Positions 8,234 to 64,000 of a stretch of DNA of 64,000 nt are shown one piece after another. The number at the start of each line of letters is the position of its first letter. Within the stretch, counting starts at the first letter, position 1. Source of the DNA: an uncultured Holophagales bacterium (GTDB lineage Bacteria; Acidobacteriota; Thermoanaerobaculia; Multivoradales; UBA5704). The DNA is taken from assembly GCA_963842525.1 (NCBI GenBank), contig CAWJGT010000008.1, forward strand, positions 1-64,000, read 5' to 3'. The position numbers and the translations under genes were made by a program. Under the pieces are notes generated by a model. The model ran no database searches. It was given only the letters and a program-made list of their open reading frames with translations, and was not told the origin of the DNA.

Positions 8234-8287
8234 AAAGCATAGAGAAGTCACTATCTTTTTCTCCTCCATGGCGTTCAGGAGGCCCTC

Positions 8288-9581: not shown

Positions 9582-9857
9582 TTGGCCGATCAGAACCTCA
9601 ACGGACGCCTGTATCAGATCGTCGACGAGCTCGTGAGGCGGGGCGTTACCCTGGAGCAGGCAAGGCGGGAGTTCGAGAAGCAGTTCATCGTGGCATCCCT
9701 CAAGTCGAACCGTGGTAATTTCTGCCGCTCCGCACGCTCGTTGGGAGTGCACCGCAACACCCTTCGCAACAAGGTCTCCGACCTCGGAATCCTGGTCGAG
9801 GACTACGATCGGCCCGGCCGCAGGCTGACGCGCCGGAAGCCCACCTCCGAGACCTGA
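9582..9857 (+). CDS. Fis-family HTH protein
   Basis: EKQFIVASLKSNRGNFCRSARSLGVHRNTLRNKV (HTH_8); TTG start inferred. Confidence 0.85.
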   Translation: MADQNLNGRLYQIVDELVRRGVTLEQARREFEKQFIVASLKSNRGNFCRSARSLGVHRNTLRNKVSDLGILVEDYDRPGRRLTRRKPTSET

Positions 9858-10067
9858 GCCTCCTTCGCCCGTCCCGCAGGGGACGCCGTACGTCCCGGCA
9901 GCTCTTGGGCGCCCATCTTGCATAGAAATCCGACCAGAACTTCGTAGATCCACCCCCCCGGGGGTGGATTCGCTGCTTCAGGACCAGATCCGCGACCGAG
10001 AGCCCACAGCTCGCTGTGGACGCAGGCTCGTCGTACGGGAGCGGACTCAAGAAAGAGGATTTGGCCG

Positions 10068-10820: not shown

Positions 10821-10854
10821 CGGCGGTGTTTGCCGTGCCGTCCGTCCGCGGGAG

Positions 10855-11037
10855 CTAGCTGTTCCGCGGTTCGTTGCGCTCTTCCAGCCGCTCCGAGTCG
10901 TCCCCCTTGAGGCCCTTCTTGAAATTGCGGATCCCCTCGCCAATCCCCTTGCCGATCTGGGGGATGCGGCTGGCGCCGAACAACACGACCACGATGAGGA
11001 AGATGACGATCAGCTCTGTTGCACCGAGATTAGGCAT
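10855..11037 (-). CDS. tatA: Twin-arginine translocase subunit TatA/E
   Basis: G..E-TM helix-LFG..RIP..G.G.G.GIRNFKKG. Confidence 0.93.
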   Translation of the reverse strand: MPNLGATELIVIFLIVVVLFGASRIPQIGKGIGEGIRNFKKGLKGDDSERLEERNEPRNS

Positions 11038-11067
11038 GGTCAGACCCTCGGTATGCAGTGTAGCAGA

Positions 11068-50000: not shown

Positions 50001-50242
50001 GGCAGGGCATCCCGGTCGACAAGCTCCAGACCGCCTGCCAGCAGTCCTGTCCCACGCAGGCGATCGTCTTCGGCGACCTGAACGACGAGGCCTGGACGGT
50101 GACGCAGTGGCAGGCGGATCCGCTCAATTACGGCCTCCTCGAAGAGATCAACACCCGGCCGCGCACCACCTATCTCGCCAAGCTGCGCAATCCGAATCCC
50201 CTGCTCGAACCGGCGGAAAGGACTGAGCATGGCCACTCTTGA
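47066..50242 (+). CDS. actB: Alternative complex III subunit ActB (molybdopterin oxidoreductase-like plus Fe-S)
   Basis: WRSLEEL, SRRGFL Tat motif, [20 protein letters not shown] and [13 protein letters not shown]. Confidence 0.95.
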
Positions 50243-51653
50243 CGACGGCGGCGCGACGTTCTCTCCCGCCGCTCCGCCCTCCAAGCCGCCAGTCGTGGCC
50301 CCGGGGCATACGACGGCGACGGTCACCGACAAGATCAGCTCGGTGGTCCTGCAGAAGGCGCCCAAGTGGTGGTTCGCCGCCTTCGGGATCTCGTTCATGA
50401 TCATGATGCTCTTCCTGATGTCGGTGACCTGGCTGCTCGTCAAGGGTGTCGGCATCTGGGGCGTCAATCAGCCGGTGGGCTGGGGCTTCGCGATCATCAA
50501 CTTCGTCTGGTGGATCGGCATCGGCCACGCCGGCACGCTGATTTCGGCGATCCTGTTGCTCTTGCGCCAGGAGTGGCGGACGTCGATCAACCGCTTCGCC
50601 GAAGCGATGACGCTCTTCGCGGTGGCCTGCGCCGGCATGTTCCCGGTCCTCCATCTCGGCCGGCCGTGGCTCGCCTACTGGCTGTTCCCCTATCCGAACA
50701 CCATGGGCATGTGGCCGCAGTTCCGCAGCCCGCTGGTGTGGGACGTGTTCGCGGTTTCCACGTACGCCACGGTGTCGATGCTCTTCTGGTACGTCGGCCT
50801 GATCCCCGACCTGGCGACGCTGCGCGACCGGTCGAAGAACCGTTTTGCCAAGGTCGTCTACGGCTTCGGCGCCATGGGCTGGCGCGGCGTCTCGTCGCAC
50901 TGGCACAACTACGAGACGGCCTACGTGCTGCTCGCCGGCCTGGCCACGCCGCTGGTGCTCTCGGTCCACACCGTGGTGTCGTTCGATTTCGCCATCGGCA
51001 TCATCCCGGGCTGGCACGCCACGATCTTCCCTCCCTACTTCGTGGCCGGCGCGATCTACGCCGGCTTCGCCATGGTCCTGCTCCTCGCCATCCCGCTGCG
51101 CGCGGTCTTCGGCCTGCAGGACTTCATCACCACACGCCATCTGCAGAACATGGGCAAGGTGATGCTGGCGACCGGCATGATCGTGGTCTACGGCTACCTG
51201 ATGGAGTTCTTCTTCGCCTGGTACAGCGGCAACCACTACGAGAAGTTCGCGTTCATCAACCGCGTCTTCGGGCCGTACAAATGGCACTGGTTCGGGCTGA
51301 TCCTCTGCAACGGCTTCGTGCCGCAGCTCCTCTGGTTCCGGCGCTTCCGCACGTCGCCGGCCTGGCTGTTCGTGATCTCGCTGATCGTCAGCGTCGGCAT
51401 GTGGCTGGAGCGCTTCATCATCGTGGTGACCAGCCTGCACCGCGACTTCCTGCCGTCGTCGTGGGGCATGTACCAGGGCACGCGGTGGGACTGGATGACC
51501 TTCGCCGGCACCATCGGCCTGTTCCTGACCCTGTTCTTCCTGTTCATCCGCTTCCTGCCGATGATCTCGATCTTCGAGATGCGCACCATCGTGCCCGGCA
51601 CCAAGGGGAGCGCGTCCACGGAGGTGCCTGCGAATGACCCAGGCCCACGGTAA
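50229..51653 (+). CDS. actC: Alternative complex III subunit ActC (NrfD family)
   Basis: [26 protein letters not shown] and SPLVWD. Confidence 0.95.
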
Positions 51654-52203
51654 TCAGCGCGAGCAGCTCGAGCGGCGCGAGATCTACGGCCTGATGGCCG
51701 AGTTCCAGTCGGCCGAGGCCCTGATCGAGGCGGCGCACAAGGTCCACGCGGCGGGCTACGAGCGCGCCGAGGCCTATACGCCCTACCCGATCGAGGAGCT
51801 TGCCCACGCCCTCGGCCATCATCGCTCGAAGCTGCCGCTGATCGTGCTGATCGGCGGCCTGTGCGGCATGGTGGGCGGCTACATGCTCCAGTACTGGGCG
51901 TCGGTGATCGAATATCCGCTCAACATCGGCGGCCGGCCGTTCCACAGTTGGCCCGCCTTCATCGTGCCGACCTTCGAGACGACGATCCTGGCGGCGGCGC
52001 TGTCGGCGGTGCTCGGCATGTTCGCCCTGAACGGGCTGCCGCACCCGTACCACCCGGTCTTCAACGTGCCGCGCTTCGCCCTGGCGTCGCGCGACCGCTA
52101 CTTCCTGGTGGTCGAGGCGCGCGATCCGAAGTTCGACCGCGACCAGACCCGGAGCTTCCTCCTGGACCTCAATGCGAGCGAGGTGTCGGACGTTGAGCCC
52201 TAG
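51634..52203 (+). CDS. actD: Alternative complex III subunit ActD (DUF3341)
   Basis: [21 protein letters not shown] and PTFETTIL. Confidence 0.92.
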
Positions 52204-52981
52204 AGCCCTGGCCCCTCACCCCCGGCCCCTCTCCCATCCGCCCTCCCGAACCGCCGGGAGAGGGGAGTCGTGGTGCCCCGAAGAATCGCTTCCAGCTTCC
52301 CCTGTCTCCTTCCCCCCTCTCCCGGGAGGTAGGGAGGGCGGATGGGAGAGGGGGGGCAGGGGGGTGAGGGGCCTCGCGCTACTCCTGGCCTGCTCGGTCC
52401 TGCTGCTCGCCGGCTGCCGGCAGAACATGCACGACCAGAACAAGGTCGAGCCGCTGGAGGCGAGCGCCTTCTATGCCGACAGCAAGGGCGCGCGCCCGCT
52501 GCCGGCCGGCACGGTGCCGCGCGGCGGTATCGGCGGCGAGAGGGGCGAGAAGATCGCTCCCTACACCGGCCTGACCGTGGCGCGGTGGACGGTCCCGGCC
52601 GGAGGCCCACCGGTCACCCTGGAGCTGCTGCGCCGCGGCCAGCAGCGCTATGACGTCTTCTGCTCCCCCTGCCACGACCGTACCGGCAGCGGACGCGGCA
52701 TGATCGTCCAACGCGGCTACAAGCAGCCGACCTCGTACCACGACGCGCGGCTGCTCAGCGTGCCGACCGACTACTTCGTCCAGGTGATCACCGAGGGGTT
52801 CGGCGTGATGCCCAGCTACGCCCCGCAAGTGCCGTTGGAGGACCGCTGGGCCATCGCCGCCTACATCCGCGCCCTCCAGTACAGCCAGAACGCCCGCCTG
52901 GCCGACCTGCCGCCCGCGCGGCGCCAGGAGATCGAGCGGGAGCTCGCAGCGGGCACGTCCCGACCCACCGAGGTGCCATGA
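52193..52981 (+). CDS. actE: Alternative complex III monoheme lipoprotein ActE, with a REP in its N-region
   Basis: LAGC lipobox, MHDQ, CSPCH and DRWAIAAYIRALQ; start is TTG 52193 or GTG 52363. Confidence 0.9.
   Translation: MSPRALAPHPRPLSHPPSRTAGRGESWCPEESLPASPVSFPPLPGGREGGWERGGRGVRGLALLLACSVLLLAGCRQNMHDQNKVEPLEASAFYADSKGARPLPAGTVPRGGIGGERGEKIAPYTGLTVARWTVPAGGPPVTLELLRRGQQRYDVFCSPCHDRTGSGRGMIVQRGYKQPTSYHDARLLSVPTDYFVQVITEGFGVMPSYAPQVPLEDRWAIAAYIRALQYSQNARLADLPPARRQEIERELAAGTSRPTEVP
52210..52373. repeat. Family A REP inverted pair inside the actE 5' region
   Basis: ggcccctcacccccggcccctctcccatccgccctccc ... gggagggcggatgggagagggggg..ggggtgaggggcc. Confidence 0.85.
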
Positions 52982-54195
52982 ACGCAGAGCCCGGTTTTCG
53001 CCCCGATCGCCTCGACCGCCTCGACGCCGCGGCGTTCACCGCTCCGGCGGCGGTCGACCGCGTCCAGCGCACCGCCCTGATTGCCGGCGGGCTGGGCGCC
53101 GCCGCCTGCGTCCTCGGGTGGATCCTGTCGCCGGCCTACTTCTACCGCGCCTGGCTGGTCGGCTGGGTCTACTGGGTCGGCGTCGCCGCGGGCTCGCTCG
53201 CGATCTTCCTGCTCCACCATCTCACCCGCGGCGCCTGGGGCCTCGTCGCCCGCCGTATCCTGGAGGCATCCGCGCGCACGCTGCCGTTCCTGGTGGTGCT
53301 CTTCCTCCCGCTCGTCTTGGGGATGCGCGAGCTCTATTCCTGGGCGCGTCCGGAGGTGGTGGCCGGCGATGCCATCCTGCAGAGCAAGGAGGCCTATCTC
53401 AACCTGCCCTTCTTCTTCGTCCGGCTGGTGCTCTATTTCGTGGTCTGGGGCGGCATCGCCTGGCTGCTCAGCCGCCTGTCCTGGCGCCAGGACCACGGCG
53501 ACGACCCGGGCCTGACGCGCCGCATGCAGCTCCTCGCGGGCCCCGGCCTCGCCGCCTACTGCCTGGCGACGACCTTCGCCGCGGTCGACTGGCTGATGTC
53601 CCTCGATCCGCACTGGTTCTCGACGATCTACGGCGTTTCGATGATGGGCAGCCAGGCCCTCTCGGCCCTCGCCTTCCTGATCGTCTGCGCGCTCTGGCTG
53701 TCACGCCGTGCGCCCATGGACCACGTCCTGCGCAGCGGCCACTTCCACGACTGGGGCAAGCTGATGCTCGCCTTCACCATGCTCTGGGCCTATTTCTCGT
53801 TCTCCCAGTTCCTGATCATGTGGGCGGGCAACCTGCCGGAGGAGATCGTCTGGTACCTCCACCGCATCCGGCACGGCTGGGGCTACGTGGCGCTGGTGAT
53901 CGTGCTCTTCCACTTCATGCTGCCCTTCACCCTTCTCCTGTCGCGCGACCTGAAGAGCCGGGCCTCGCGGCTGGCGGGTGTGGCCGTGCTGATGCTCGTC
54001 ATGCGCCTGGTCGACCTCTTCTGGCAGGTCGAGCCCGGGTTCGAATACCAGGATTTCAGGTTCTACTGGCTCTATTTGGCGGCGCCGGTGGCCATCGGCG
54101 GCGTCTTCGTCTTCTTCTTCCTGCGCGAGCTCAAGCGCGCGCCGCTGCTGCCGGTCGGCGACCCCAATCTCCCGGAGGTGCTCGCTCATGAGTGA
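52978..54195 (+). CDS. actF: Alternative complex III subunit ActF
   Basis: About 10 TM helices; DWLMSLDPHWFSTIYG and WAGNLPEE. Confidence 0.92.
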   Translation: MNAEPGFRPDRLDRLDAAAFTAPAAVDRVQRTALIAGGLGAAACVLGWILSPAYFYRAWLVGWVYWVGVAAGSLAIFLLHHLTRGAWGLVARRILEASARTLPFLVVLFLPLVLGMRELYSWARPEVVAGDAILQSKEAYLNLPFFFVRLVLYFVVWGGIAWLLSRLSWRQDHGDDPGLTRRMQLLAGPGLAAYCLATTFAAVDWLMSLDPHWFSTIYGVSMMGSQALSALAFLIVCALWLSRRAPMDHVLRSGHFHDWGKLMLAFTMLWAYFSFSQFLIMWAGNLPEEIVWYLHRIRHGWGYVALVIVLFHFMLPFTLLLSRDLKSRASRLAGVAVLMLVMRLVDLFWQVEPGFEYQDFRFYWLYLAAPVAIGGVFVFFFLRELKRAPLLPVGDPNLPEVLAHE

Positions 54196-54796
54196 GATCC
54201 ACATCGGGCCCCATACCCGGGACGAGCCCCGAAAGATCCCGCACGACACGACCGGGACGTTCGACCGCGAGATCGACCTGAAGGCGATCGCCTGGCTGGT
54301 CGGCGGCCTAGTCGCTATCGCCCTCGTGGTGCAGGTCCTGGTCCTGTGGACGATCCGCGGCTTCGAGCGCTTCGACGAGAAGAGGGACGTGCGCCCGTCC
54401 CCGATCGAGGCGGCCATCCCCCAGGGTCCGCCGCCGGGGCCGCCACTGCAGACCGACGACGAGAAGGACATGCGCGATCTGCGGGAGGAAGAGGACAGCG
54501 TCCTCGACAGCCCGGCCTGGGTCGACCCCGCGCAAGGACGGGTGCGGGTGCCGATCGACGTCGCCATGGAGGTGATCGCCAGCCGGGGCCTCGGGGCGGA
54601 GGTGGTGGGCGGGGCCCCTCACCCCCCTGGCCCCCCTCTCCCAACCGCCCTCCCATCCCCCGGGAGAGGGGGGAAGGAAGACACTTCCGAGAGGGATCGC
54701 GAGCGGTCTCTGCTCCCCTCTCCCGGGGGCCAGGGAGTGCGGTTGGGAGAGGGGCCGGGGGTGAGGGGGCCGGCGCCACAGGAGAGCCCGCTTTGA
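54188..54796 (+). CDS. Single-TM accessory protein (ActG-like) with an in-frame REP
   Basis: TM helix, P.P.LQ and WVD...VRVPIDVAM; position between actF and SCO. Confidence 0.7.
   Translation: MSEIHIGPHTRDEPRKIPHDTTGTFDREIDLKAIAWLVGGLVAIALVVQVLVLWTIRGFERFDEKRDVRPSPIEAAIPQGPPPGPPLQTDDEKDMRDLREEEDSVLDSPAWVDPAQGRVRVPIDVAMEVIASRGLGAEVVGGAPHPPGPPLPTALPSPGRGGKEDTSERDRERSLLPSPGGQGVRLGEGPGVRGPAPQESPL
54613..54771. repeat. Family A REP inverted pair inside CDS 54188..54796
   Basis: ggcccctcacccccctggcccccctctcccaaccgc ... gcggttgggagaggggccgggggtgagggggcc. Confidence 0.85.
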
Positions 54797-55653
54797 CCCG
54801 TCTCCTCTCGACCCTCACGCTCGCGGCCGCCCTGCTGGCCGCCTCTTCGGCCTTCGCCGGCGACCGGGTGTGGACCGGCCCCGGGCCGGGGCTCGGCCCC
54901 AACGCGGCGGCCATGGCAAAACCGTTGCAGCAGGTGCGTTTCGACCAGCGCCTCGGCGAGCCGGTGCCGCTCGACCTCGCGTTCCGCGACGCGTCCGGCC
55001 GCCCGGTCCGGCTCGGCGGCCTGTTCGGCAAGCGGCCGGTGGTCCTGGTCTTCTCCTATTACGAGTGCCCGATGCTCTGCCCCATGGTCCTGAACGGCCT
55101 GGCGACCAGCCTGAAGCCGCTGACGTTCGAGCCCGGCCGGGACTTCGAAGTGGTGGTGGTGAGCATCGATCCGGGGGAGACCCCGCAGCTCGCCGCGGAT
55201 GCCAAGCGCCGGACGCTCGAACGCTATGGCCGCCCGCAGAGCGCCGCCGGCTGGCACTTCCTGACCGGCGGCCAGGACGCCATCTCCGCACTGACCGACG
55301 CGGCCGGCTTCCGCTACGTCTATGACGCGGAGCGCGACGAGTATGCCCATGCCGCCGGCGTCGTCGTGGCCATGCCCGACGGCCGGATCTCGCGCTACCT
55401 GTTCGGCATCGATTACCCGCCGCGCGACATCCGCATGGCGGTGATGGAGTCGGCCGGCCGCCGCACCGGCTCGGCCATCGACAACGTCATCCTCTACTGT
55501 TTCCACTACGATCCCACGATCGGACGCTACAGCGCGGCGACGTTCAAGATCCTGCGGCTCGCGGCCGTTGCCACGGTCGCCGGGCTCGTGCTGATGATGG
55601 TCCTCCTGCGCCGGCGGGAGACCCGGGACAACGGTCCTCTGGGGGCAGCCTGA
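54793..55653 (+). CDS. SCO1/SenC copper chaperone
   Basis: YYECPMLC, GWHFLTG, HAAG and CFHYDP. Confidence 0.92.
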   Translation: MTRLLSTLTLAAALLAASSAFAGDRVWTGPGPGLGPNAAAMAKPLQQVRFDQRLGEPVPLDLAFRDASGRPVRLGGLFGKRPVVLVFSYYECPMLCPMVLNGLATSLKPLTFEPGRDFEVVVVSIDPGETPQLAADAKRRTLERYGRPQSAAGWHFLTGGQDAISALTDAAGFRYVYDAERDEYAHAAGVVVAMPDGRISRYLFGIDYPPRDIRMAVMESAGRRTGSAIDNVILYCFHYDPTIGRYSAATFKILRLAAVATVAGLVLMMVLLRRRETRDNGPLGAA

Positions 55654-55655
55654 CC

Positions 55656-56630
55656 ATGCAGAGCATGGCATCCGATCTACCGCTTTTTCCCGAATCGGCC
55701 TCCAGCGTCGCGCCGCAGATCGACGCCCTTTTCTTCGCCTGGTCGGCGGTGAGCATCTTTTTCTCGCTCCTGATCGCCGTCCTGATCATCTATTTCATGG
55801 CCAGATACCGCCGGCGCTCCCCCGACGAGGTGGGCCTGGCGGAGAGGGCGCCGTTCTGGCTGGAGATCGCCTGGTCGCTGATCCCGCTCGCCATCATGCT
55901 GGTCATGTTCTTCTGGGGCACGCGGGTGTTCATCAACATCTACCGTCCGCCGGCCGACGCAGTCCAGTACTACTCGATCGGCAAGCAGTGGATGTGGAAG
56001 TTCCAGCACCCGACGGGTCAGCGCGAGATCAATACGCTGCACATCCCGGTGGGGCAGCCGATCCAACTGCTCCTGCAGTCGGAGGACGTGATCCATAGCT
56101 TCTTCGTCCCTGCCTTCCGGGTGAAGCAGGACGCGGTCCCGGGCCGCTACACCTCCGTCTGGTTCGAGGCCACCAAGCCGGGTGTCTTTCATCTGTTCTG
56201 CGCCGAGTACTGCGGCGGCGAGCACTCCCGGATGATCGGCAGCGTCGTGGCGATGGAGCCGAGCCGGTACGAGGAGTGGCTGTCCGGCGGCCCCGCGGGC
56301 CGTTCGGTGGTGGCCTCGGGCGCCGATCTCTTCGAGCAGCTCGCCTGCCAGACCTGCCACAACCCGAGCCAGGCCGGCCTGGCGCGCGCGCCCACCCTCG
56401 AAGGGCTGTTCGGCAACCAGGTCAGGCTCCAGGACGGGCGCACCGTCGTCGCCGACGAGAACTACCTGCGCGAATCGATCCTCAACCCGATGGCCAAGGT
56501 GACGGCCGGCTGGCAGCCGATCATGCCGACCTACCAGGGGCAGGTGACCGAAGAGCAGCTCACGCAGCTCATCTCCTACATCCGCTCCCTTGAAGAATCC
56601 AGCGGGGCAGAGGTGACCGTCCGACCATGA
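55656..56630 (+). CDS. coxB: Cytochrome c oxidase subunit II with fused cytochrome c (caa3)
   Basis: [18 protein letters not shown] CuA motif and CQTCH. Confidence 0.96.
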
Positions 56631-58303
56631 GCACAGAACTTTCCTCCGCAACCGTCGCACCGGGCCCGGAGACCGGGTACGAACGGCCGAACTATCTGAA
56701 CGCCGCCTATGGCGTCCGTTCGTGGCTCCTGACCCGCGACCACAAGCGGATCGCCATCCTCTACCTCCTCTCGGTCACGGTCTTCTTCGCCCTGGGCAGC
56801 CTGTTCGCCCTGCTGCTCCGCCTCGAGCTGCTGACGCCGGAAGGCGACCTCATGCAGCCCGACATGTACAACCGGATGTTCACCATGCACGGCATCGTCA
56901 TGGTGTTCTTCTTCCTCATCCCCGCGATCCCGGCGGTGCTGGGCAACTTCCTGGTGCCGCTGATGATCGGCGCCAGGGACCTGGCCTTCCCCCGGCTCAA
57001 CCTGGCGAGCTGGTACGTCTACAACCTCGGCGGGATTTTCACTTTATGGGCGATCGCGCACGGCGGCGTCGACACCGGCTGGACCTTCTATACGCCGTTC
57101 AGCACCGCCTACTCGAACAGCTACGTCGTCACCGCGGCGCTCGGTATCTTCATCAATGGATTTTCGACCATCTTCACCGGGCTGAACTTCATCGTCACCA
57201 TCCACCGCATGCGGGCGCCCGGCATGACCTGGTTCCGGCTGCCGCTCTTCATCTGGTCGAGCTATGCGACGAGCGTGATCATCGTGCTCGGGACGCCGGT
57301 CATCGCCATCACCCTGCTGCTGGTGGCGGCCGAAAAGGTGCTCCACCTCGGCATCTTCGACCCCCGGCTGGGCGGCGACCCCATCCTCTTCCAGCACCTG
57401 TTCTGGTTCTACTCGCACCCGGCGGTCTACATCATGATCCTGCCGGCGATGGGAGTGATCAGCGAGCTGGTGGCCGCCTTCGCGCGCAAGCGGATCTTCG
57501 GCTACCGCTTCGTCGCCTTCGCCAGCATTGCCATCGCGGTGCTCGGCTTCCTGGTCTGGGGGCACCACATGTTCCTGACCGGCCAGTCGATCTACGCCAG
57601 CACGATCTTCTCGATCCTCTCGATGCTGGTGGCGGTCCCCTCGGCCATCAAGGTGTTCAACTGGACGGCGACGCTCTACGAGGGCTCGATCTCCTACCAG
57701 ACCCCGATGCTCTATGCCCTGGGCTTCATCGGCCTGTTCACCATCGGCGGCTTGACGGGGGTGATGATCGCCACGCTCGGCATCGACGTCCACGTGCACG
57801 ACACGTACTTCATCGTCGCCCACTTCCACTACATCATGGTGGGCGGCACGATCATGGGCTACATGGGAGGCCTCCATTACTGGTGGCCGAAGATCTCGGG
57901 CAAGCTCTATCCGGCGTTCCTGTCGCGGCTGGCGGCCCTGCTGGTCTTCGTCGGGTTCAACCTGACCTTCCTGCCGCAGTTCGTGCTCGGCTACCTCGGC
58001 ATGCCGCGCCGCTACTGGTCCTACCCGCCCGAGTTCCAGGTGCTGAACGTCCTGTCGACCGCGGGGGCCTCGATCCTCGGCGTCGGCTACATCCTGCCGC
58101 TCTTCTACTTCGCCTGGTCGATGCGCTACGGCGCGAAGAGCGGCGACAACCCGTGGGGCGCCCTCGGCCTCGAATGGGACACGCCGTCGCCGCCGCCGAC
58201 CGAGAACTTCTACACCCCTCCGGTCGTCACCCACGGACCGTACGAGTACAACCCGCAAGAGGTGCACGACCGCACCTCGCATCCGGAGGCACGCGTTGGC
58301 TAG
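56627..58303 (+). CDS. coxA: Cytochrome c oxidase subunit I, A2 type
   Basis: [22 protein letters not shown] and HFHY. Confidence 0.97.
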
Positions 58304-59084
58304 CACGACCATGGAACCGCACGCGCACGAAGCGCATCATCACCCGGCGCACCCGGCGCTGCAGCACCAGTTCGACGACCTCGCGCAGCAGAAGGAGTCC
58401 TCGACGCTGGGGATGTGGCTGTTCCTGGTCACCGAGATCATGTTCTTCGGCGGCCTGTTCCTCGCCTACGTGGTCTACCGGCGGGCCTACTCCGAGGCCT
58501 TCCTGCTCGGCAGCAACACGCTGGACGTCCTGCTCGGCGGCATCAACACCGCCGTCCTGATCTGCAGCAGCTTGACGATGGCCCTCGCCATCTGGGCCGC
58601 GCAGGTGAACCGGCGCAAGTGGATCGTGCTCTTCCTGATCGCCACGATCGTCCTGGGTGCAGTCTTTCTCGGCATCAAAACGGTCGAATACAAGGACAAG
58701 TTCACGCACCACCACGTCCCGGGGCCGAATTTCCACTTCGTGCCGGAGCACGGCGGCGAGCATGCCGCGGAGAGCCCCTTCCCCGGTACGGGGGAGAGGG
58801 CCGGGGAGAGGGGGCACGGGATCAACCCGGCCGAAGACCCCCAGCTCGAGCGGCACGCCTCGCTCTTCTTCTCCCTCTACTTCGTCATGACCGGCCTGCA
58901 CGCCACCCACATGATCATCGGCATGATCATCCTCGGAGTGCTGGCCGTCTACGCCTGGAAGGGAAAATACGACAGCACGTACTACAACCCGCTGGAGATG
59001 ACCGGCCTCTACTGGCACTTCGTCGACATCGTCTGGATCTTCCTCTTCCCGCTCCTCTACCTGCTCGGGGCCCACGCGGCCTGA
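58296..59084 (+). CDS. coxC: Cytochrome c oxidase subunit III
   Basis: [26 protein letters not shown] and YWHFVDIVW. Confidence 0.96.
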
Positions 59085-59101
59085 GCGCGGAGAACCGAGG
59101 C

Positions 59102-59413
59102 ATGCCCGAGCACCACGAGCACGTTTCCTCCCCCTGGATGTACTTCGGGGTCTTCGCCGCCCTGATGGTCCTCACCGGCATCACCTGGGCCGTCGCCCAG
59201 GTCGACCTCGGCTGGGCCAACGACGTCGTGGCCCTGACGATCGCCGTCACCAAGGCGCTCCTCGTCATCCTCTTCTTCATGCACGTCCGCCACAGCACGC
59301 GCCTGACGAAGCTGACGGCTCTGACCGGGTTCTTCTTCCTGGCGATCCTGATCTTCATGACCCTGAACGACTACGTCACCCGCGGTGCCCTGCTGACGGT
59401 GCCGGGGAAGTAG
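59102..59413 (+). CDS. coxD: Cytochrome c oxidase subunit IV
   Basis: Three TM helices; LMVLT and KALLVILFFMHV. Confidence 0.9.
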   Translation: MPEHHEHVSSPWMYFGVFAALMVLTGITWAVAQVDLGWANDVVALTIAVTKALLVILFFMHVRHSTRLTKLTALTGFFFLAILIFMTLNDYVTRGALLTVPGK

Positions 59414-59532
59414 AAGAGGCAAGATCCCGCTCGCCCGTTGAGGAAAGGGGGTTCCAATGCGACGTCAAGATGGTAGACTACAGACTCAGCCAAAGGTAGG
59501 ATCTGGCCGCGAGGTTAGGGCTCGCTGACGAA

Positions 59533-61326
59533 ATGGAACGAGACGATACAGGCGCTCACCGCTCCCCTCTCGTCTTTATCAGCTATTTCCAGAAACCGCC
59601 GCAGCACAAGAAGAGAGTTCAGGCCTTCGCAGTGCGCCTTGCGAAGGAAGGGCTCGAGGTCGTCATCGACAGTGATCAGGAACCCGAGGAGGGTTGGGCT
59701 GCCTGGTCCGGGCGACAGATCGAGACGGCTGATTATGTTCTGATCATCTTCAGCCCTGGATATGCGAGCGAGGGCAGCGGCGCGTCGAGCCCTGAAGGAC
59801 GCGGCAGCGCATGGGAGCTCCATCTGGTTCAGCAAGACCTCTTTGAATCGAGAGCCAAGAATCACCGCTTCATTCCCGTCCTGTTCTCTGCTGAGCACAC
59901 CGGGCTCATTCCTCGATTCCTCAGGGGCGCCTCCTACTACGATGTCAGTACCGAAGACGCCTATCAAGGCCTTCTGAAGAGGTTGCGCCGGCCCCGCGCG
60001 AAGAGTGCAACTCCGCCCGCGCCACTGGTATCTGCCATGCAGGCGGTCCGCGCCGCCACCTGGACACGCATTGGGCCGATTCCCGAGCCCGCCGATGTGT
60101 ACAAGTACGACCCGTCGGATCGACATTCAATCTTCCTGCGCAACCTTCTACGGAATCCACCTCTAGAAGAGGTGTTGACTCATCACCGCGAGGACCCGCT
60201 GAGGATTCTCAGCATATGGGGTGCCAAGCACGACAAGGACCGGATCGACTACCACCTTGGTCACCTCTACGTCCTCCAGAAGTTGCGAGATTTTGTTGGC
60301 GAACCTTCGGTCCGGACCGAGCTCTTCCTCGGCATTAATCCGATGGCGAGCTTTACCAACCCTGAACGGGCTCGCCGTCAGGCAGAATATCTTGAATGCA
60401 CCGAAAAGCTGGTACGTTCCGTCCTTGGAGATCAAATCCGGATCGACAACTGCCTGAAGAGTGCCGATCTCCCCGAGGTCCGCGACATTTGTGAGCAGGC
60501 TAAGCGGACGTATTCCGAGGTCATCGAAAAGCTGGTCTCCATCTTCGACGTTGACCGGGTGAGCCAGATCCGCACGAGCCTGCCGGCAGCAGATCAGGAA
60601 GCCATTCTCAGCGAATTGGAAGCCGCCTTCGAGCTTCCCCGGGAGCAGGCCGAACAACTGTTTGAAGATTTGAAGGCATTCTTTGGCACGAAGAAGCCCT
60701 GGCTCCATGCCGAATTCGAAAGAGAGCACCGCCGCCAGCTCTTTGTCTACACCCATGCAATCGCGAAGCCGCACTGTATCCTGGTGAGCACGCGTCACCT
60801 TGCCCAATGGCGATGGTACCAGGCCGTCCTCTGGCTGGGCAAGATGAACCCAGTCCCCGAGTTGATCCTCCTCGACGCGTTCCGAGACCCGAACGATGAC
60901 GAGCCCATGAGATCGGGCGCCGGCCTGCCGATCTTCCTTATGGATCTCCCGAGCGAGACTCGTGCGAAGCTCGAGTACGCCAGCACGAGTTTCGAGTATT
61001 TCCTGCCGCAGTGCTTCGACTATCTCATCTTTCCCCAGCAGGAGGAGGTCGAGGTCGTTGCTTCCGGGACGGACCGGCGGACGGTTTTTCTCAAGGCACC
61101 GTGGAACTTGTCCCGCTACCGCGAGCAGCGCCTCGGCTCCCGCGAGATCCTAGCCGCCTGCCAGCAGCAACTCCTGCGCCTGTTCGAAAGGCATCGGCAG
61201 GTCGTCTCCAAAGCGCGGCAGTCCTTCTATGAGTCTCATACAGGTTGGATCAGCCTCACGAACGCACAGTGTCTGGCCCAGGCGGCGAGCTGGTGCGGTG
61301 TCACATTGGAGGAGCAGAGCTTCTGA
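59533..61326 (+). CDS. SEFIR/TIR domain fused to a class I aaRS-like (TyrRS/TrpRS-type) HIGH domain
   Basis: VFISY..VVID..GWAAW..IETADYVLII..GRGSAWE..FIPVLF; then PLRILSIWG..HLGHLYVLQKLRDF, EPMRSG..PIFLMD and FDYLIFP. Confidence 0.75.
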   Translation: MERDDTGAHRSPLVFISYFQKPPQHKKRVQAFAVRLAKEGLEVVIDSDQEPEEGWAAWSGRQIETADYVLIIFSPGYASEGSGASSPEGRGSAWELHLVQQDLFESRAKNHRFIPVLFSAEHTGLIPRFLRGASYYDVSTEDAYQGLLKRLRRPRAKSATPPAPLVSAMQAVRAATWTRIGPIPEPADVYKYDPSDRHSIFLRNLLRNPPLEEVLTHHREDPLRILSIWGAKHDKDRIDYHLGHLYVLQKLRDFVGEPSVRTELFLGINPMASFTNPERARRQAEYLECTEKLVRSVLGDQIRIDNCLKSADLPEVRDICEQAKRTYSEVIEKLVSIFDVDRVSQIRTSLPAADQEAILSELEAAFELPREQAEQLFEDLKAFFGTKKPWLHAEFEREHRRQLFVYTHAIAKPHCILVSTRHLAQWRWYQAVLWLGKMNPVPELILLDAFRDPNDDEPMRSGAGLPIFLMDLPSETRAKLEYASTSFEYFLPQCFDYLIFPQQEEVEVVASGTDRRTVFLKAPWNLSRYREQRLGSREILAACQQQLLRLFERHRQVVSKARQSFYESHTGWISLTNAQCLAQAASWCGVTLEEQSF

Positions 61327-61327
61327 T

Positions 61328-62569
61328 ATGGCTCAGGTCCTCGACGAGCAGCCGGAGGCATTCAGCGATCTCTATTGGCAGGTGATCGATTCTGTCTGCG
61401 CATTCCTGACCACGAAAGCTGCAGGCAACAAAGGCAGCCCGAAGATTCTTGGGCGGCTCTTGGAGCTCGTCCAGCGCATGAAGGATCTCGACGTCTACCA
61501 TTGGCTGACGGAGAAAGCCTACCGGGACGAGTACAGCCACGTTATCAACGTCGGCGTCTGCGGACAGATCCTGCTCGGAAACGTACAGGCCGAGGGCCAG
61601 ACTCTGGGCGCACTGATCCGCAAGCTCCTGGGCTGGAACGAGCAGACATCCGATTCGCTGATAGAGGCCACTTGGTGGCTGACGGCTTTACTCCACGATC
61701 ATGCCTACCCCATCTCACACTTCCTGCGGCACTTCGGCCCGCGTACCTATGTGGAGCGCTCGCGGTCAGGAGGGCCGCGGGAGAATCTTCCGGAATCGTG
61801 GCTCCGCTTTTCCTCGTCGCTCGCCGACCTGGTGCAACGGCTAGCTGGAGGACGCTTGCGCACACTTCTCCAAGACCTCCAAGGAGGAGAGCGCTTTCCC
61901 GATTTGGCTAGCTATAGAAGAAAGATTCAGGCCGAGTTGACGAGCATCATCCGCAGGCACAATCTGCTCGGGGATTCCGGGCCCCACACGTCGGACCTCA
62001 CCTGGGAGACCACTGTCGACCATGGCATCCTGGCAGCGCTCAATCTCTACGAATTCGCCGACGCCGAGAGTCTTTTGCATTCCAGAGACAGGAGCGCGTG
62101 GCAGCCGATTGACTACGTGGCCGACGCGATCGCTGTTCACAACCATCCCGGCCTCCGCCCCATGCTCAAGTTCGAGGAGAATCCATTCGCCTATGTACTG
62201 GCCCTCGCCGACGAGATCCAGGAATGGGGTAGGAGCGCACTCAGCGAAGACTATCTCCATCCGATCGCCAAGGTCGACATCGGACCCTTCTTCGAGGAGC
62301 AGGGCAAAATGACCTCGCTTCCGGACCGGCGCTTGAAGGTCCGCTTTTTTGTGGCCGACGCTTTTCGCCGGCAGGAGCTGCGGTGGAGCCTGGAGCGTTT
62401 CGAGAGAAGCAAAAACGATACCTTCAAACGGCTGGCGCTCCCGGTAATCGATCCAACAGGATCAGATCCAGAGTTGGGTGCACGAGAGTTGCTGCGAGCC
62501 ATCGACTATGAGCTGCGCATGGAAGGGATGAAGTTCCACGGAGATCCTCCAAAACGTGAACGCATCTGA
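61328..62569 (+). CDS. HD-domain phosphohydrolase
   Basis: YRDEYSHVINV, ALLHDHAYP, DHGILAA, AIAVHN and LADEIQEWGR; starts 1 bp after the upstream stop. Confidence 0.8.
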   Translation: MAQVLDEQPEAFSDLYWQVIDSVCAFLTTKAAGNKGSPKILGRLLELVQRMKDLDVYHWLTEKAYRDEYSHVINVGVCGQILLGNVQAEGQTLGALIRKLLGWNEQTSDSLIEATWWLTALLHDHAYPISHFLRHFGPRTYVERSRSGGPRENLPESWLRFSSSLADLVQRLAGGRLRTLLQDLQGGERFPDLASYRRKIQAELTSIIRRHNLLGDSGPHTSDLTWETTVDHGILAALNLYEFADAESLLHSRDRSAWQPIDYVADAIAVHNHPGLRPMLKFEENPFAYVLALADEIQEWGRSALSEDYLHPIAKVDIGPFFEEQGKMTSLPDRRLKVRFFVADAFRRQELRWSLERFERSKNDTFKRLALPVIDPTGSDPELGARELLRAIDYELRMEGMKFHGDPPKRERI

Positions 62570-62582
62570 CTCGGGAGGACAT

Positions 62583-63446
62583 ATGATCGAACGCATCCGC
62601 ACGTATTCGGCCATTGACACACCCCAGGACATGGCAGCGGCCGCCAAGGTCCTCGAACAGCGCTTTGACATTGAATTTACAGTTCTCTTGCACTTCAAGC
62701 AAGGCTTGCTTCATAGCCTCCAGAGTGCGAACGGCTCTCCGGAAGACCTTCCTGAGGGGGCCTTTGTAGCCTCCCGTTCGGATCCGGGTGTGCTCGAGCT
62801 GTTTGGCGAGTTGACCTGGATCGCCAACTCGGGCACCCTGACGGTGGAGAAACGGCGGCGCTACCTCGCGGCCCTCCAAGCGATCTATCGGCGGCTTCCC
62901 GGCTCACCGCTGGACTGGATGAGCGATCCCGGTGCCCTTTTCGTCGCTCCTGAGCGCGAGGGCCGAATCCTAGCCGAGACCCTGGGCTGGCTTCCTTCCG
63001 GCCGGTCGCTCCGGCCACATGTCAAGAGGATCCACTATGGCGATGACCTGGTCGTAGGACTGGGCGACTTCGTGCCCAGCCGGCGAGCTTCCAGGTGCAT
63101 CCTGATTGACGGGGCAATCGCCAGCGGCGCCACCCTGATCTCCCTGATCGAACGGCTTCGGGCTTTCACCGAGTATTTCTCGATCTATTCAGTGCACGCG
63201 ACATGCGAGGGACTGCGTTGCATCCTGGCCTACGGCCGGGAGGCAGGCGTTAAGATCTCCATCACCGTCGGCCATGCGACGCCGGGTATCAATCGGCATT
63301 TCTACGCAGTCGGCTCCGATGGACGTGTCATGGTGGGCGACCTGGGTGATACAATTGCACCGCTCCTAGACGCGATGTTTGAGCCAGCCCATTCGGACCG
63401 GAAGGATGACACGGGCCTTGATCTGCAAGTTCCGTTCCTGAGCTGA
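62583..63446 (+). CDS. Type I phosphoribosyltransferase, divergent UPRT-like
   Basis: RBS GGAGGA; ILIDGAIASGAT PRPP loop, ATCEGL, GINRHFY and VGDLGD. Confidence 0.8.
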   Translation: MIERIRTYSAIDTPQDMAAAAKVLEQRFDIEFTVLLHFKQGLLHSLQSANGSPEDLPEGAFVASRSDPGVLELFGELTWIANSGTLTVEKRRRYLAALQAIYRRLPGSPLDWMSDPGALFVAPEREGRILAETLGWLPSGRSLRPHVKRIHYGDDLVVGLGDFVPSRRASRCILIDGAIASGATLISLIERLRAFTEYFSIYSVHATCEGLRCILAYGREAGVKISITVGHATPGINRHFYAVGSDGRVMVGDLGDTIAPLLDAMFEPAHSDRKDDTGLDLQVPFLS

Positions 63447-63473
63447 CCTACCTGCGCGCGTTAGGTGAACTCA

Positions 63474-64000
63474 TGGGGCGCCCTCGGGCTCGAAAGGGCA
63501 TCCCTTCGCTGCCACGTCCCGGGGCCGAATTTCCACTTCGTGCCGGAGCACGGCGGCGAGCATGGCGAAGAGACCTCCCTTTCCCCCGGTACGGGGAGAG
63601 GGCCGGGGAGAGGGGGCACGGGGTCAACCCAGCCAAAGACCCCCAGCTCGAGCGGCACGCCTCGCTCTTTTTCTCACTCTACTTCGTCATGACGGGCCTG
63701 CACGCCACCCACATGATCATTGGCATGATCATCCTCGGAGTGCTGGCCTGGTACGCCTGGAAGGGGAAATACGACAGCACGTATTACAACCCGCTGGAGA
63801 TGACCGGCCTCTACTGGCATTTCGTCGCCGCCCTGATGGTCCTCACCGTCATCACCTGGGCCGTTCGCCCAGGTCGACCTCGGCTGGGCCAACGACGTCG
63901 TCGCCCTGACGATCGCCGTCACCAAGGCGCTCCTCGTCATCCTCTTCTTCATGCACGTCCGCCACAGCACGCGCCTGACGAAGCTGACCGCTCTGACCGG
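63474..64000 (+). pseudogene. Decayed patchwork copy of the coxA 3' end, coxC and coxD (continues beyond the window)
   Basis: Matches about 58154-58195, then about 58710-59025, then about 59156-59328, with substitutions and indels. Confidence 0.9.

Follow-up and report, generated by a model that had tools for sequence, protein, structure and literature searches.

A TyrRS/TrpRS-like domain behind a SEFIR-type TIR domain in a three-gene insert of a Holophagales bacterium: a possible nucleotide-binding input module

Aminoacyl-tRNA synthetases have non-translational offshoots, which include MshC, GluQRS and the cyclodipeptide synthases (CDPSs), the last being about 220–300 aa long. Among bacterial systems that carry a SEFIR-type TIR domain, bSEFIR defends through NAD+ depletion. 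CDPSs have been described as highly derived versions of the synthetase catalytic domain (PMC2922099), and HisZ as a synthetase paralogue that lacks adenylation activity and regulates the phosphoribosyltransferase (PRTase) HisG as its ligand-sensing subunit (PMC9437257). Table 1 of the latter source, a 2022 review, gives no function for a paralogue of TyrRS or TrpRS. In PUA-Cal-HAD systems, a domain derived from an RNA enzyme acts as a mononucleotide sensor for the phosphoesterase effectors that it drives, and it is also found fused to TIR (bioRxiv 10.64898/2026.01.15.699771). In Clover, the activity of the HD dNTPase CloA is set by its nucleotidyltransferase partner, CloB (PMC12265719).

Here we compare with these systems a locus from an uncultured Holophagales bacterium, located in a 64,000-nucleotide stretch of DNA that was analysed as a whole (the window). 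An initial annotation had recognized a repurposed class I synthetase-like domain behind a TIR domain at positions 60130–61326, which correspond to ORF1 residues 200–597 plus the stop codon. The features of the locus are as follows.

59533–61326, plus strand: ORF1, 597 aa, composed of a SEFIR/TIR domain, a linker and a TyrRS-like domain, termed X (open-reading-frame list and translation)
59572–59970, plus strand: SEFIR-type TIR domain, ORF1 residues 14–146 (Pfam, PADLOC and solved structures)
60130–61323, plus strand: domain X, with a class Ic aminoacyl-tRNA-synthetase fold, ORF1 residues 200–597 (AF2, Foldseek, VIA-align and PDB profile)
60253–60264, plus strand: HLGH at the HIGH position, domain residues 42–45, ORF1 residues 241–244
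60787–60798, plus strand: S-T-R-H at the GxDQ position, domain residues 220–223
60907–60918, plus strand: M-R-S-G at the KMSKS position, domain residues 260–263, with Pro rather than Lys just before it
61328–62569, plus strand: ORF2, 413 aa, a predicted HD-type metal-dependent phosphohydrolase module
62583–63446, plus strand: ORF3, 287 aa from its ATG, a UPRT-like type I PRTase
63468–64000, plus strand: decayed partial second cox copy (end of subunit I and subunit III–IV region), detected as direct repeats

The three genes are closely spaced. The ATG of ORF2 lies 2 nt past the ORF1 stop codon and is preceded by GGAGGAG, and the ATG of ORF3 leaves a gap of 13 nt, with an alternative GTG start at 62556 yielding a 296-aa protein that overlaps the end of ORF2. 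The database gene call for ORF1 (P0003) starts 33 residues later than the 597-aa frame, and this start would lose the first TIR strand because the Pfam TIR_2 match begins at residue 14. The three genes form an insert with a GC content of ~0.59, as against 0.64–0.73 in the flanks. The insert sits between duplicated cox sequence and is bounded on the right by the decayed cytochrome oxidase copy, in which the segments 58148–58178, 58712–59025 and 59151–59328 are repeated at 87–99% identity with internal deletions. Within ~6 kb lie genes for a YhgA/Rpn-like protein and for a large serine recombinase. A search of the genome found domain X in a single copy. In a search of sequencing runs, one soil-metagenome DNA run contained 0.11 of the sampled words, and no RNA run containing the locus sequence was listed.

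By the initial annotation, the predicted fold should contain a Rossmann core whose first helix begins with HLGH. This arrangement is present in the AF2 model of X, which is of moderate confidence (pLDDT 68.4, pTM 0.66), exhibits the β–α–β Rossmann pattern and carries HLGH in the first turns of a helix spanning domain residues 38–57; pLDDT is below 50 at residues 33–43 and 262–304, the loop preceding HIGH and the KMSKS-equivalent loop, respectively. A Foldseek search with the model yielded 20 matches at E ≤ 0.001, and those at ranks 1–14 and 16–20 (19 of 20) were all TyrRSs. VIA-align, run over 48,161 chains, ranked TyrRS/TrpRS-type entries in each of the first 13 places. The best match, Aeropyrum pernix TyrRS (2cya; Z 16.2, rmsd 3.8 over 270 residues), spans residues 1 to 368 of the model and includes the helical part beyond the KMSKS position. 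CDPSs matched at Z 9.8–11.0 and covered only residues up to ~255. Among the top 50 entries, the sole cytidylyltransferase-like one was 3glv (Z 8.3), PanC entries scored 8.1–8.5 and NMNAT was absent; an HxGH-type motif is common to X and NMNAT-type families. The comparison of predicted folds that had been proposed at the outset, against TyrRS, TrpRS, CDPS and NMNAT, places TyrRS and TrpRS first, CDPS behind them and NMNAT-type cytidylyl/adenylyltransferases as much weaker neighbours (Z about 8).

A profile of the X family searched against PDB sequences agrees with the fold. Five of its eight matches at E ≤ 10 were to TyrRS or TrpRS, each of them weak alone (best E 0.021), and the likeness goes beyond chance because these enzymes make up five of the eight. 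Domain X has the class Ic (TyrRS/TrpRS) synthetase fold, and its homology to these enzymes is established. Single-sequence searches of ORF1 residues 200–597 found nothing in Pfam, NCBIfam, PADLOC or PHROGs, and X is covered by no model in any of the four collections. A phmmer search against the PDB had returned chance TPR matches on the HLGH helix (E 0.39); a TPR-like helix was rejected, as the profile and the fold overruled it. In a language-model atlas, where recognition of X was low (1372) and the result serves as a lead only, the clusters were automatically named NurA domain-containing (0.95), CDPS (0.92) and DIT1_PvcA (0.92), and one listed cluster had PF16715 in 26% of its members. A two-copy homodimer prediction scored 0.00, which speaks neither for nor against dimerisation.

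The initial annotation had also read the order of elements in X as parallel to that of TyrRS/TrpRS, and every motif that it quoted is present and aligned to the matching element. The stretch HLGH..LQKLRDF aligns to the HIGH helix of Helicobacter pylori TyrRS (6byq), of the host TyrRS and of a Methanocaldococcus jannaschii TyrRS variant; CILVSTRH aligns to the 'VGKDNE' strand of TrpRS 6ncr in the profile search of the PDB, with STRH opposite G-K-D-N; PMRSG..IFLMDLPSETRAKL aligns to the KMSKS-bearing 20-residue stretch of the same TrpRS and to 'GKMSSS..IAVDDSPEEIRAKI' of 7ynw; and YLIFP aligns to 'YVIYP' of Nanoarchaeum equitans TyrRS (7fg6). From the N-terminal helix through the HIGH helix, the GxDQ strand and the KMSKS loop to the segment after KMSKS, the elements align in TyrRS order, the last of these aligning by sequence to residues 253–359 of the N. 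equitans enzyme.

Conservation within the family separates what X has kept from what it has replaced. HLGH is invariant in all seven family sequences, as is the surrounding loop (W30 G31 A32 D35 K36 ... H42 L43 G44 H45 Y47 V48). The GxDQ and KMSKS positions are altered, as had been noticed from the sequence of ORF1. In the five full-length members, S220, R222 and H223 are invariant, such that S-x-R-H replaces GxDQ, with Asp changed to Arg and Gln/Asn to His. KMSKS is replaced by x-M-[RKT]-S-x in a loop that reads P/I/T/V/E-M-R/K/T-S/A-G/A/R; M260 is invariant in these five sequences, the first Lys of KMSKS is absent from all of them (P, I, T, V and E stand there) and a basic residue, Arg or Lys, is kept within the loop in four. 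Altogether, 63 positions are invariant among the full-length members, and they cluster on the catalytic-core elements. The conserved HLGH loop, together with the uniformly replaced charging signatures, suggests that the pocket has been conserved to hold another ligand and has not simply decayed. The invariant HIGH element and the conserved pocket would fit an active enzyme equally well.

These data bear on whether X could be an additional functional TyrRS or TrpRS, such as an auxiliary copy or one resistant to an antibiotic. Its class Ic fold and intact HLGH would allow it. However, neither KMSKS nor GxDQ is conserved, X is fused to TIR or HD domains, and PF00579, the model of this synthetase family, was detected neither in ORF1 at E ≤ 1 (Pfam) nor for X at E ≤ 10 in a scan of the genome, reaching E 8.4e-4 in just one of the seven family members. 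Because PF00579 misses X, and because two canonical PF00579 genes exist elsewhere in the genome (249 and 247 bits), X is not a translation enzyme, in line with the initial annotation. We rejected a working synthetase, which we consider hardly credible. Rather, X is probably a paralogue of archaeal/eukaryotic-type TyrRS/TrpRS that has lost tRNA charging.

A decoy function, in which X would mimic TyrRS/TrpRS to trap phage factors directed against host synthetases and binding would free the TIR domain, draws on the shared fold and the TIR fusion only. In structural alignments, X is 7–14% identical to real TyrRS/TrpRS, and hhalign of the X family against the host TyrRS aligned 36 columns at the HIGH helix with a probability of 25%; surface mimicry is unlikely because identity is so low and so few columns align. 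In the AF2 model, moreover, a helical insertion of ~105 residues (domain residues ~108–212) stands at the CP1 position, and the C-terminal part is helical. The replacement of CP1 argues against a decoy, as do the relatives, which lack the TIR domain and have an HD module instead. We know of no phage factor that targets host synthetases in this way, and we consider the decoy very improbable.

The domain in front of X is a TIR, as had been noted at first, and more exactly one of SEFIR type. The N terminus of ORF1 matches Pfam TIR_2 (7.6e-13) and SEFIR (7.9e-12), as well as PADLOC bSEFIR (E 4.2e-30), the latter over model positions 38–182 of 412 only. Among solved structures, it comes nearest to the bacterial SEFIR domain (5y8e/5y8f; E 8e-5) and to the Act1 SEFIR domain (2.5e-4). 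Glu95 of ORF1 aligns to a Glu of 5y8e, which we take to be the catalytic residue. The fusion of TIR to X is found in this genome's copy alone.

The X family is rare, with 6 representatives among 1.84 billion. A search of genome contigs gave 26 pattern matches and 1 relative (L001, 42 residues at a contig end), and one of metagenome contigs gave 27 pattern matches and 1 relative (L002). Viral contigs gave 15 pattern matches and no relative, and tblastn with X against plasmids and phages gave no match. In all four relatives that extend past X, an HD module follows at its C terminus; the module is complete in P0005, P0006 and P0007, and in P0004 it runs as far as the record does. Because X and HD are fused in these relatives, the HD module is the tightest partner of X. 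The genomic surroundings of relatives come from two loci, L001 and L002. In L002, the closest relative, the X–HD gene abuts a gene for GTP cyclohydrolase II at 10415/10416, and the flanks contain a sigma factor, Maf and an ORF read by eye as a methyltransferase, with no defence genes nearby.

In the window, the HD module is encoded separately, as ORF2. Residues H71, H123-D124-H125, D231-H232, H271 and D295 are invariant in eight of eight sequences, and the metal-binding motif H...HD...D is thus present. With the AF2 model (pLDDT 72.7), VIA-align returned almost exclusively HD/PDE-type proteins in its top rows, the best being the HD exoribonuclease YhaM at Z 11.7, a score short of the ~13 under which the tool advises caution with helical proteins; no Foldseek match reached E ≤ 0.001 and no Pfam HD model matches ORF2. 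In the language-model atlas, ORF2 fell mostly into unnamed clusters, with HD at 0.95 (16% of members) and HD-CE at 0.89. The module also occurs behind a receiver (REC) domain (P0132) and an AAA/STAND-like NTPase (P0131), these being two of the four other HD-module proteins, the two with a recognizable N-terminal domain. Because REC and AAA domains are found there, the N-terminal slot of the module appears to accommodate input or regulatory domains. A profile of the module found no relatives in viral contigs.

Several neighbours of ORF2 raise the question of whether X recognizes tRNA (tRNA-Tyr/Trp-like, of phage origin or with a damaged end) and either senses it or guides the HD protein as a nuclease or end-phosphodiesterase, so that translation would stop while TIR depletes NAD+. 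Besides YhaM, the structural neighbours of ORF2 include the Cas3 HD domain, HD domains of GlyRS β subunits and a tRNA-processing enzyme; one HD-module relative matches PADLOC Cas3e (E 0.0012), and Pfam Cas3_HD matches two of the eight sequences at 0.09. The match of X to TyrRS beyond the KMSKS position, in structure and in sequence, would also suit this reading. On the other hand, CP1, which in TyrRS contacts the tRNA acceptor stem, is the region that X has replaced, positions 50000–64000 of the window hold no tRNA gene, and the nucleotide enzyme encoded by the third gene would be left without explanation. We regard tRNA recognition as unlikely.

The third gene, ORF3, belongs to a family of at least 177 proteins. 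Uracil PRTases account for six of the seven PDB matches of the family profile (best E 0.013), the alignment taking in the PRPP loop, and the family-invariant stretches D185-G-A-I-A-S-G-x-T and G261-D-L-G-D align to UPRT 2e55. Pfam UPRTase matches 11 of 20 family members (best 3.5e-5); ORF3 itself reaches E 0.16 with Pribosyltran, at 11.7 bits against a cut-off of 26.3. An assignment as a retron-type PRTase-CE effector was rejected, the matches being weak alone, in 6 of 20 members (best E 0.0076); the terms PRTase-CE and HD-CE have no occurrences in PMC7159879. Because the ORF3 family is repeatedly fused or adjacent to HD nucleotidases, PRTase followed by HD is a recurring two-step pair. In a Streptomyces replicon, family members stand in nucleoside-salvage-type surroundings (an IU nucleoside hydrolase, a nucleobase permease and a YfbR-like HD protein), which point to metabolism rather than immunity. 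A sample of 300 further genomes from this phylum yielded no match to the ORF3 profile, and viral contigs yielded no relative. The corresponding third gene in L002 is identified as GTP cyclohydrolase II by Pfam (1.3e-33) and by an E value of 1.8e-25 to solved RibA, to which three conserved Cys positions align. UPRT and GTP cyclohydrolase II both give ribonucleoside 5′-monophosphates; the likeness of the two third-gene products is drawn from these textbook reactions.

Two further readings draw on the third gene. In the first, X would itself be an active HIGH-superfamily enzyme, an adenylate-forming ligase or nucleotidyltransferase in a short pathway: PRTase or GTP cyclohydrolase II would give an unusual pyrimidine-type ribonucleoside 5′-monophosphate, X would adenylylate or aminoacylate it, HD would trim or degrade the product, and TIR would use or be controlled by it as a signal or an NAD-like dinucleotide, which takes in the NMNAT-like transferase of the initial annotation. 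The invariant HLGH and loop and the clustering of the 63 invariant positions on the catalytic core are consistent with such an enzyme, and X catalysis is still conceivable because four of five members keep a basic residue in the KMSKS-equivalent loop. Both alternative third genes encode nucleotide enzymes, the PRTase–HD pair recurs, and enzyme–enzyme fusions such as X–HD would be are common for consecutive steps. By contrast, the loss of the first KMSKS Lys and the replacement of the GxDQ Asp and Gln by Arg and His in all five members argue against activity, as do the low scores of NMNAT/cytidylyltransferase-type and PanC-type neighbours (Z 8.1–8.5, versus 16.2 for TyrRS) and the regulatory nature of the HD module's other partners, and the similarity of the third-gene products is itself taken from the textbook. 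We consider an active enzyme, the main rival to the reading favoured below, possible, if on the unlikely side.

In the second, the locus would have no immune role and would be a regulated module for nucleotide salvage, catabolism or a small metabolite, in which X would act as a ligase or, like HisZ, as an allosteric subunit, and the fusion to TIR would be a lineage-specific oddity. The Streptomyces surroundings, the position of L002 outside any defence island, the lack of a PADLOC match for ORF2 and ORF3 and the HisZ–HisG precedent, in which a synthetase paralogue regulates a PRTase, are consistent with it. Against it stand the match of the fusion partner to PADLOC bSEFIR (4e-30), the extremely patchy spread of both X and ORF3 and the lower GC content of the trio beside recombinase genes. 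A purely metabolic role is in our view doubtful.

The initial annotation had offered three functions for X, namely a sensor, a decoy and an NMNAT-like transferase, and the sensor best fits the evidence from domain architecture. We favour, at a little under an even chance, an input module that binds a nucleotide or adenylate and controls the HD and TIR effectors. The argument from architecture is built on the four X–HD fusions and on two of the four other HD-module proteins. X has been combined with effector-type domains of two unrelated kinds, HD at its C terminus in relatives and TIR at its N terminus here, and the other N-terminal partners of the HD module are regulatory. The three genes are, in addition, tightly coupled in a low-GC insert near a recombinase, and HisZ and PUA-Cal-HAD are precedents for such an input module. 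Mechanistically, X, having kept the nucleotide-binding HIGH element along with a strongly conserved, re-tuned pocket, would bind a nucleotide, whether adenylate-like or of another kind, which the nucleotide enzyme of the same transcript (the UPRT-like PRTase here, GTP cyclohydrolase II in the closest relative) may produce or use up. Ligand-bound X would then switch on the attached effector, which in relatives would be the HD module in the same chain and here the HD protein encoded 2 nt downstream together with the SEFIR/TIR domain captured at the N terminus of X; the latter would degrade NAD+ or signal. For this copy, a role in conflict with phages or mobile elements is the most likely one because of the TIR domain and the location beside recombinase genes.

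A more specific scheme, which we judge improbable as a whole, is a hitherto undescribed nucleotide-signalling immune pathway whose signal would be received, or synthesized, by a converted aminoacyl-tRNA-synthetase fold. On infection, the PRTase (GTP cyclohydrolase II in the relative) would make an unusual pyrimidine-type mononucleotide, the TyrRS-derived pocket, ancestrally for aminoacyl-adenylate, would bind or adenylylate it, and the SEFIR NADase and the Cas3-like or PDE-like HD protein would be switched on.

A literature search found no description of the X family, within a scope outside Nicastro et al. 2023 (NAR 51:11479; nucleotide-targeting 'conflict effector' domains) and supplements. 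No earlier case would then exist of a domain descended from TyrRS that is connected to TIR and HD modules of immune type. As a sensor, X would represent a new class of input domain for bacterial sensor–effector immunity and would reveal the residue changes by which a pocket that forms adenylates becomes a receptor; as an enzyme, it would define a new nucleotide or aminoacyl-nucleotide product.

Compared with known systems, X is closest to archaeal/eukaryotic-type TyrRS (PF00579, tRNA-synt_1b; 2cya, human mini-TyrRS 1n3l and N. equitans 7fg6), with which it shares the Rossmann fold and the helical domain that follows it (Z 16.2 and 15.3), to which it is about 10% identical and from which it differs in S-x-R-H, x-M-[RKT]-S-x, the helical replacement of CP1, sub-threshold Pfam scores and the TIR/HD fusion. 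It is likewise distinct from the genome's own TyrRS and TrpRS genes. CDPSs (PF16715) are also a non-translational offshoot of the class Ic fold (Z to X of 11.0, 10.4 and 10.2), but they are compact and lack the HIGH element and the C-terminal tRNA-binding domain, whereas X retains HLGH together with its C-terminal helical part and is nearer to TyrRS by 5 Z units. In HisZ–HisG, as in the X operon, a synthetase paralogue without charging is encoded with a PRTase, the link between X and ORF3 being one of gene order; HisZ, however, is of class II, acts in histidine biosynthesis and has no TIR or HD partner. The bSEFIR single-gene system (PADLOC PDLC03957) has the N-terminal SEFIR-type TIR in common with ORF1, whereas the C-terminal part of ORF1 differs. 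Clover resembles the X operon in pairing an HD-superfamily effector with a nucleotide-handling partner, but CloB is a Pol-β-type rather than a HIGH-type nucleotidyltransferase, CloA is a SAMHD1-like dGTPase and no sequence relation was found. PUA-Calcineurin-CE-HAD differs in its folds (PUA versus synthetase, calcineurin versus HD, HAD versus PRTase) and has been shown experimentally, whereas the X operon is known from its sequence; yet, as far as it is described in the source cited above, it unites a borrowed sensor, a phosphoesterase effector and a second nucleotide enzyme, the same arrangement as is proposed here for the X operon.

The first gene of the three-gene insert, ORF1, is a single open reading frame in which a SEFIR-type TIR domain precedes X, the domain under study. 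The arrangement is as follows.

59533-61326, + strand: ORF1, 597 aa, single open reading frame
ORF1 residues 14-146, + strand: SEFIR-type TIR domain (Pfam TIR_2 7.6e-13, SEFIR 7.9e-12)
60130-61326, + strand: X, the span of the initial annotation, ORF1 residues 200-597 plus stop, the C-terminal two thirds
61328-62569, + strand: ORF2, starting 2 nt past the ORF1 stop and preceded by GGAGGAG
62583-63446, or from GTG 62556, + strand: ORF3, the third gene of the insert

The solved chains nearest to the TIR domain are a bacterial SEFIR domain (5y8e/5y8f; E 8e-5), in which a Glu lies opposite ORF1 Glu95 in the alignment, and then the SEFIR domain of Act1 (2.5e-4). The PADLOC model bSEFIR matches ORF1 at 4.2e-30, but the match covers only model positions 38-182 of 412. 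The public gene call (P0003) places the start codon 33 codons past the 59533 ATG, so that the first TIR strand would be lost; the longer ORF1 is the better gene model.

Searches with X returned no match in Pfam, NCBIfam, PADLOC or PHROGs, and no meaningful match in the PDB when X was used as a single sequence. The family is small: six proteins, including the window's own, were found at E<=0.001 (HMMER, 1.84 billion representatives), and a word-index search of 5.8 billion yielded two, the window's own and the truncated relative P0004. A profile was built from seven sequences trimmed to the X domain (alignment A4). Five of its eight matches to PDB sequences at E<=10 were to TyrRS or TrpRS; these are individually weak (best E 0.021), the alignments run in order along TyrRS/TrpRS, and a wider profile gave the same outcome. 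The HIGH helix of X aligns with Helicobacter pylori TyrRS 33-86, the segment from the strand 'iarPdlilvstrHeahW' to the loop 'sevMRSGanssifliDkaeevrdkL' with TrpRS 6ncr 154-233 (starting 'VPVGKDNEAH'), and the following 100 residues with Nanoarchaeum equitans TyrRS 253-359. One of the seven family members also reaches Pfam tRNA-synt_1b (E 8.4e-4).

The AF2 model of X, built from the seven-sequence alignment (pLDDT 68.4, pTM 0.66), is, like that of ORF2, of moderate confidence, and it is in the loops of X critical for function that confidence falls furthest. The X model begins with strand 24-31, helix 38-57 (HLGH at 42-45), strand 63-70, helix 78-102 and strand 103-107; a helical insertion (about 108-212) is followed by strand 216-219, helix 221-236, strand 244-247, a low-confidence loop and a helical C-terminal part. 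The Rossmann core with HLGH at the start of the first helix, on which the initial annotation had staked its reading, is thus present in the model. Foldseek against the PDB gave 20 matches at E<=0.001, and all 19 of those listed (ranks 1-14 and 16-20) are TyrRS. A VIA-align comparison with 48,161 representative chains puts TyrRS/TrpRS-type entries in the first 13 places, led by Aeropyrum pernix TyrRS (Z 16.2, rmsd 3.8, 270 aligned) and including human mini-TyrRS (Z 15.3) and a TrpRS homologue (Z 14.8); lower down are CDPS (11.0), other class I synthetases (~10), PvcA (8.6), and PanC and cytidylyltransferase-like chains (Z ~8). Because the profile, AF2, Foldseek and VIA-align results agree on a TyrRS/TrpRS-type fold, the original observation of a class I synthetase-like domain behind a TIR is confirmed. 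A fold of this type brings to mind a tRNA-directed role, which we consider improbable, and a decoy, which we consider very improbable.

HLGH and its surrounding loop are invariant in all seven family sequences, and 63 positions are invariant among the five full-length members. The alterations noted earlier at the other two signatures hold across the family. The GxDQ position reads S-x-R-H in five of five full-length members; the KMSKS position reads P/I/T/V/E-M-R/K/T-S/A-G/A/R, with the first Lys missing in all five and a basic third position in four. Scanning the 9.9-Mb genome with PF00579 recovered two canonical genes elsewhere (249 and 247 bits) and did not detect X. X is thus a synthetase paralogue that retains the nucleotide-binding signature and has changed the two others in a conserved manner, and, as had been proposed, it is not a translation enzyme; that it is a working synthetase is barely credible. 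X has the fold and HIGH of class Ic synthetases but neither their KMSKS nor their GxDQ, and the family HMM does not recognize it. Its scaffold is that of a synthetase, but X is better not classed as a TyrRS.

The relatives of X place it in a different setting. P0005, P0006 and P0007 (800-824 aa) lack a TIR, as does the truncated P0004; in all four, an N-terminal X runs straight into a module homologous to ORF2, and the split between ORF1 and ORF2 falls at the linker position of these fused proteins. ORF2 residues H71, H123-D124-H125, D231-H232, H271 and D295 are invariant in eight of eight relatives. Its AF2 model (pLDDT 72.7) gave nothing in Foldseek at E<=0.001, and the Pfam HD models do not match ORF2; VIA-align retrieved HD and PDE proteins (YhaM, Z 11.7; class I PDEs, ~9; YedJ, 9.0; Cas3-HD, 8.5), and one ORF2 relative matches PADLOC Cas3e (E 0.0012). 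Motif conservation and these middling Z scores suggest that ORF2 adopts an HD fold. Modules of the ORF2 type also occur without X: after a receiver domain in P0132, after an AAA/STAND-like NTPase in P0131, which also carries a C-terminal SHOCT, and after N-termini that were not recognized in P0133 and P0134. The module forms a rare family of its own, with swappable N-terminal domains and no Pfam model.

This domain architecture is the strongest argument available on the role of X. Effector-type domains of two unrelated kinds are attached to X, a C-terminal HD module in the relatives and an N-terminal SEFIR/TIR domain in this genome, and the slot ahead of the HD module is otherwise occupied by the input domains REC and AAA. 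Because different effectors have been recruited and the slot is one common to regulators, X is most simply an input domain. The pocket of its TyrRS ancestor holds ATP and the aminoacyl-adenylate. The conserved Arg-His of X occupies what we take to be the positions where TyrRS touches the ribose and the carboxylate of the amino acid, and the lost lysine is presumably the residue that drives adenylate formation. On the strength of the architecture, the retained HIGH, the conserved Arg-His and the lost KMSKS lysine, we tentatively favour, at somewhat short of even chances, a receptor: a nucleotide- or adenylate-like ligand would bind in the X pocket, and ligand-bound X would gate the predicted HD hydrolase as well as, in this genome, a predicted SEFIR NADase.

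The conserved core of X is as compatible with catalysis as with binding, and the third gene bears on this choice. Uracil PRTases account for six of seven PDB matches of the ORF3 profile, with the PRPP loop in register, and 11 of 20 family members match Pfam UPRTase. The family, at least 177 proteins, is far larger than that of X, and some members carry a fused YfbR-type HD domain or methyltransferase. On replicon p1 of Streptomyces sp. BHT-5-2 (L009 4553-9871), an ORF3 homologue in an unannotated stretch is flanked by genes that encode an IU nucleoside hydrolase, an MFS transporter, a permease of the xanthine/uracil type and a YfbR-like HD protein; the stretch looks like a nucleobase/nucleoside salvage cluster around an uncharacterized UPRT-like family. 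In L002, a 514-kb metagenome contig with the closest X relative for which context is available, the gene abutting the X-HD gene encodes GTP cyclohydrolase II rather than a PRTase (Pfam 1.3e-33; solved RibA is matched at E 1.8e-25, and its three Cys positions are kept in the alignment). Here (7953-11072) the X-HD fusion gene runs without a gap into a second-copy-type GTP cyclohydrolase II gene, with a Maf gene after it, and the cyclohydrolase has Q-S-V-C in place of H-S-E-C before and at the first Cys. By their textbook reactions, a UPRT-like PRTase and GTP cyclohydrolase II both yield pyrimidine-type ribonucleoside 5'-monophosphates. X might therefore still be an enzyme that acts on the mononucleotide supplied by the third gene, and the pairing of PRTase and HD recurs; we judge this main rival unlikely, though to be taken seriously. 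On the other contig with context, L001, merely 42 residues of X are present, and a weak nucleoside-deoxyribosyltransferase-like ORF (PF05014, E 7.3e-4, below the cut-off) lies ~600 bp upstream.

The surroundings of the insert contain the following features.

58148-59328 versus 63468-64000 (on the contig to about 64108; L007 1-1108): duplicated cytochrome oxidase DNA
L007 3199-4212, - strand: YhgA/Rpn-like gene (Transposase_31, 4.8e-25)
L007 4606-5891 (contig C8 about 67606-68891): large serine recombinase, ~4 kb past the trio

The left border is the end of a cytochrome c oxidase operon (I, III, IV) with intact subunit III/IV genes, and the right border is a decayed, partial second copy of this DNA (87-99% identity, internal deletions). 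The decayed copy lacks about 59026-59150 and 58179-58711, and insertions do not usually leave a footprint of this kind, with an intact operon end on one side and a decayed duplicate on the other. GC content is 0.64-0.73 in the operon versus ~0.59 across ORF1-ORF3. The domains of the recombinase are split between two frames, Resolvase in one and Recombinase plus Zn-ribbon in the other; either the gene is frameshifted or the assembly is in error. None of 300 other sampled genomes of the phylum yielded a match to the ORF3 profile. The GC drop, the duplicate-bounded insert, the nearby recombinase and this absence of ORF3 point to horizontally acquired cargo. One of the two X relatives with genomic context (L001 and L002) lies outside any defence island; that the cluster is a non-immune metabolic module has, in our estimate, a low probability.

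We regard the cluster, with X as its putative receptor, as a candidate sensor-effector, nucleotide-centred conflict system on a synthetase paralogue. No relevant account emerged from literature searches on synthetase-like domains, whether in phage defence or in combination with TIR and HD; an earlier mention is possible in a 2023 paper, which reportedly defined 'conflict effector' HD and PRTase families. Table 1 of a 2022 review gives no paralogue function for TyrRS or TrpRS (PMC9437257), and among the class I synthetase-like proteins surveyed in 2010 are CDPS and a MetRS paralogue (PMC2922099). TyrRS is a closer match to X than CDPS is, and X retains features that are absent from CDPSs. Precedents for the proposed rewiring are HisZ, a paralogue of a synthetase that is described as lacking adenylation activity and as a regulator of a PRTase (PMC9437257), and the PUA-Cal-HAD system, in which a domain derived from RNA enzymes is described as sensing a mononucleotide and driving phosphoesterases and is also present on TIRs (10.64898/2026.01.15.699771); by analogy with both, a similar rewiring of X is plausible.
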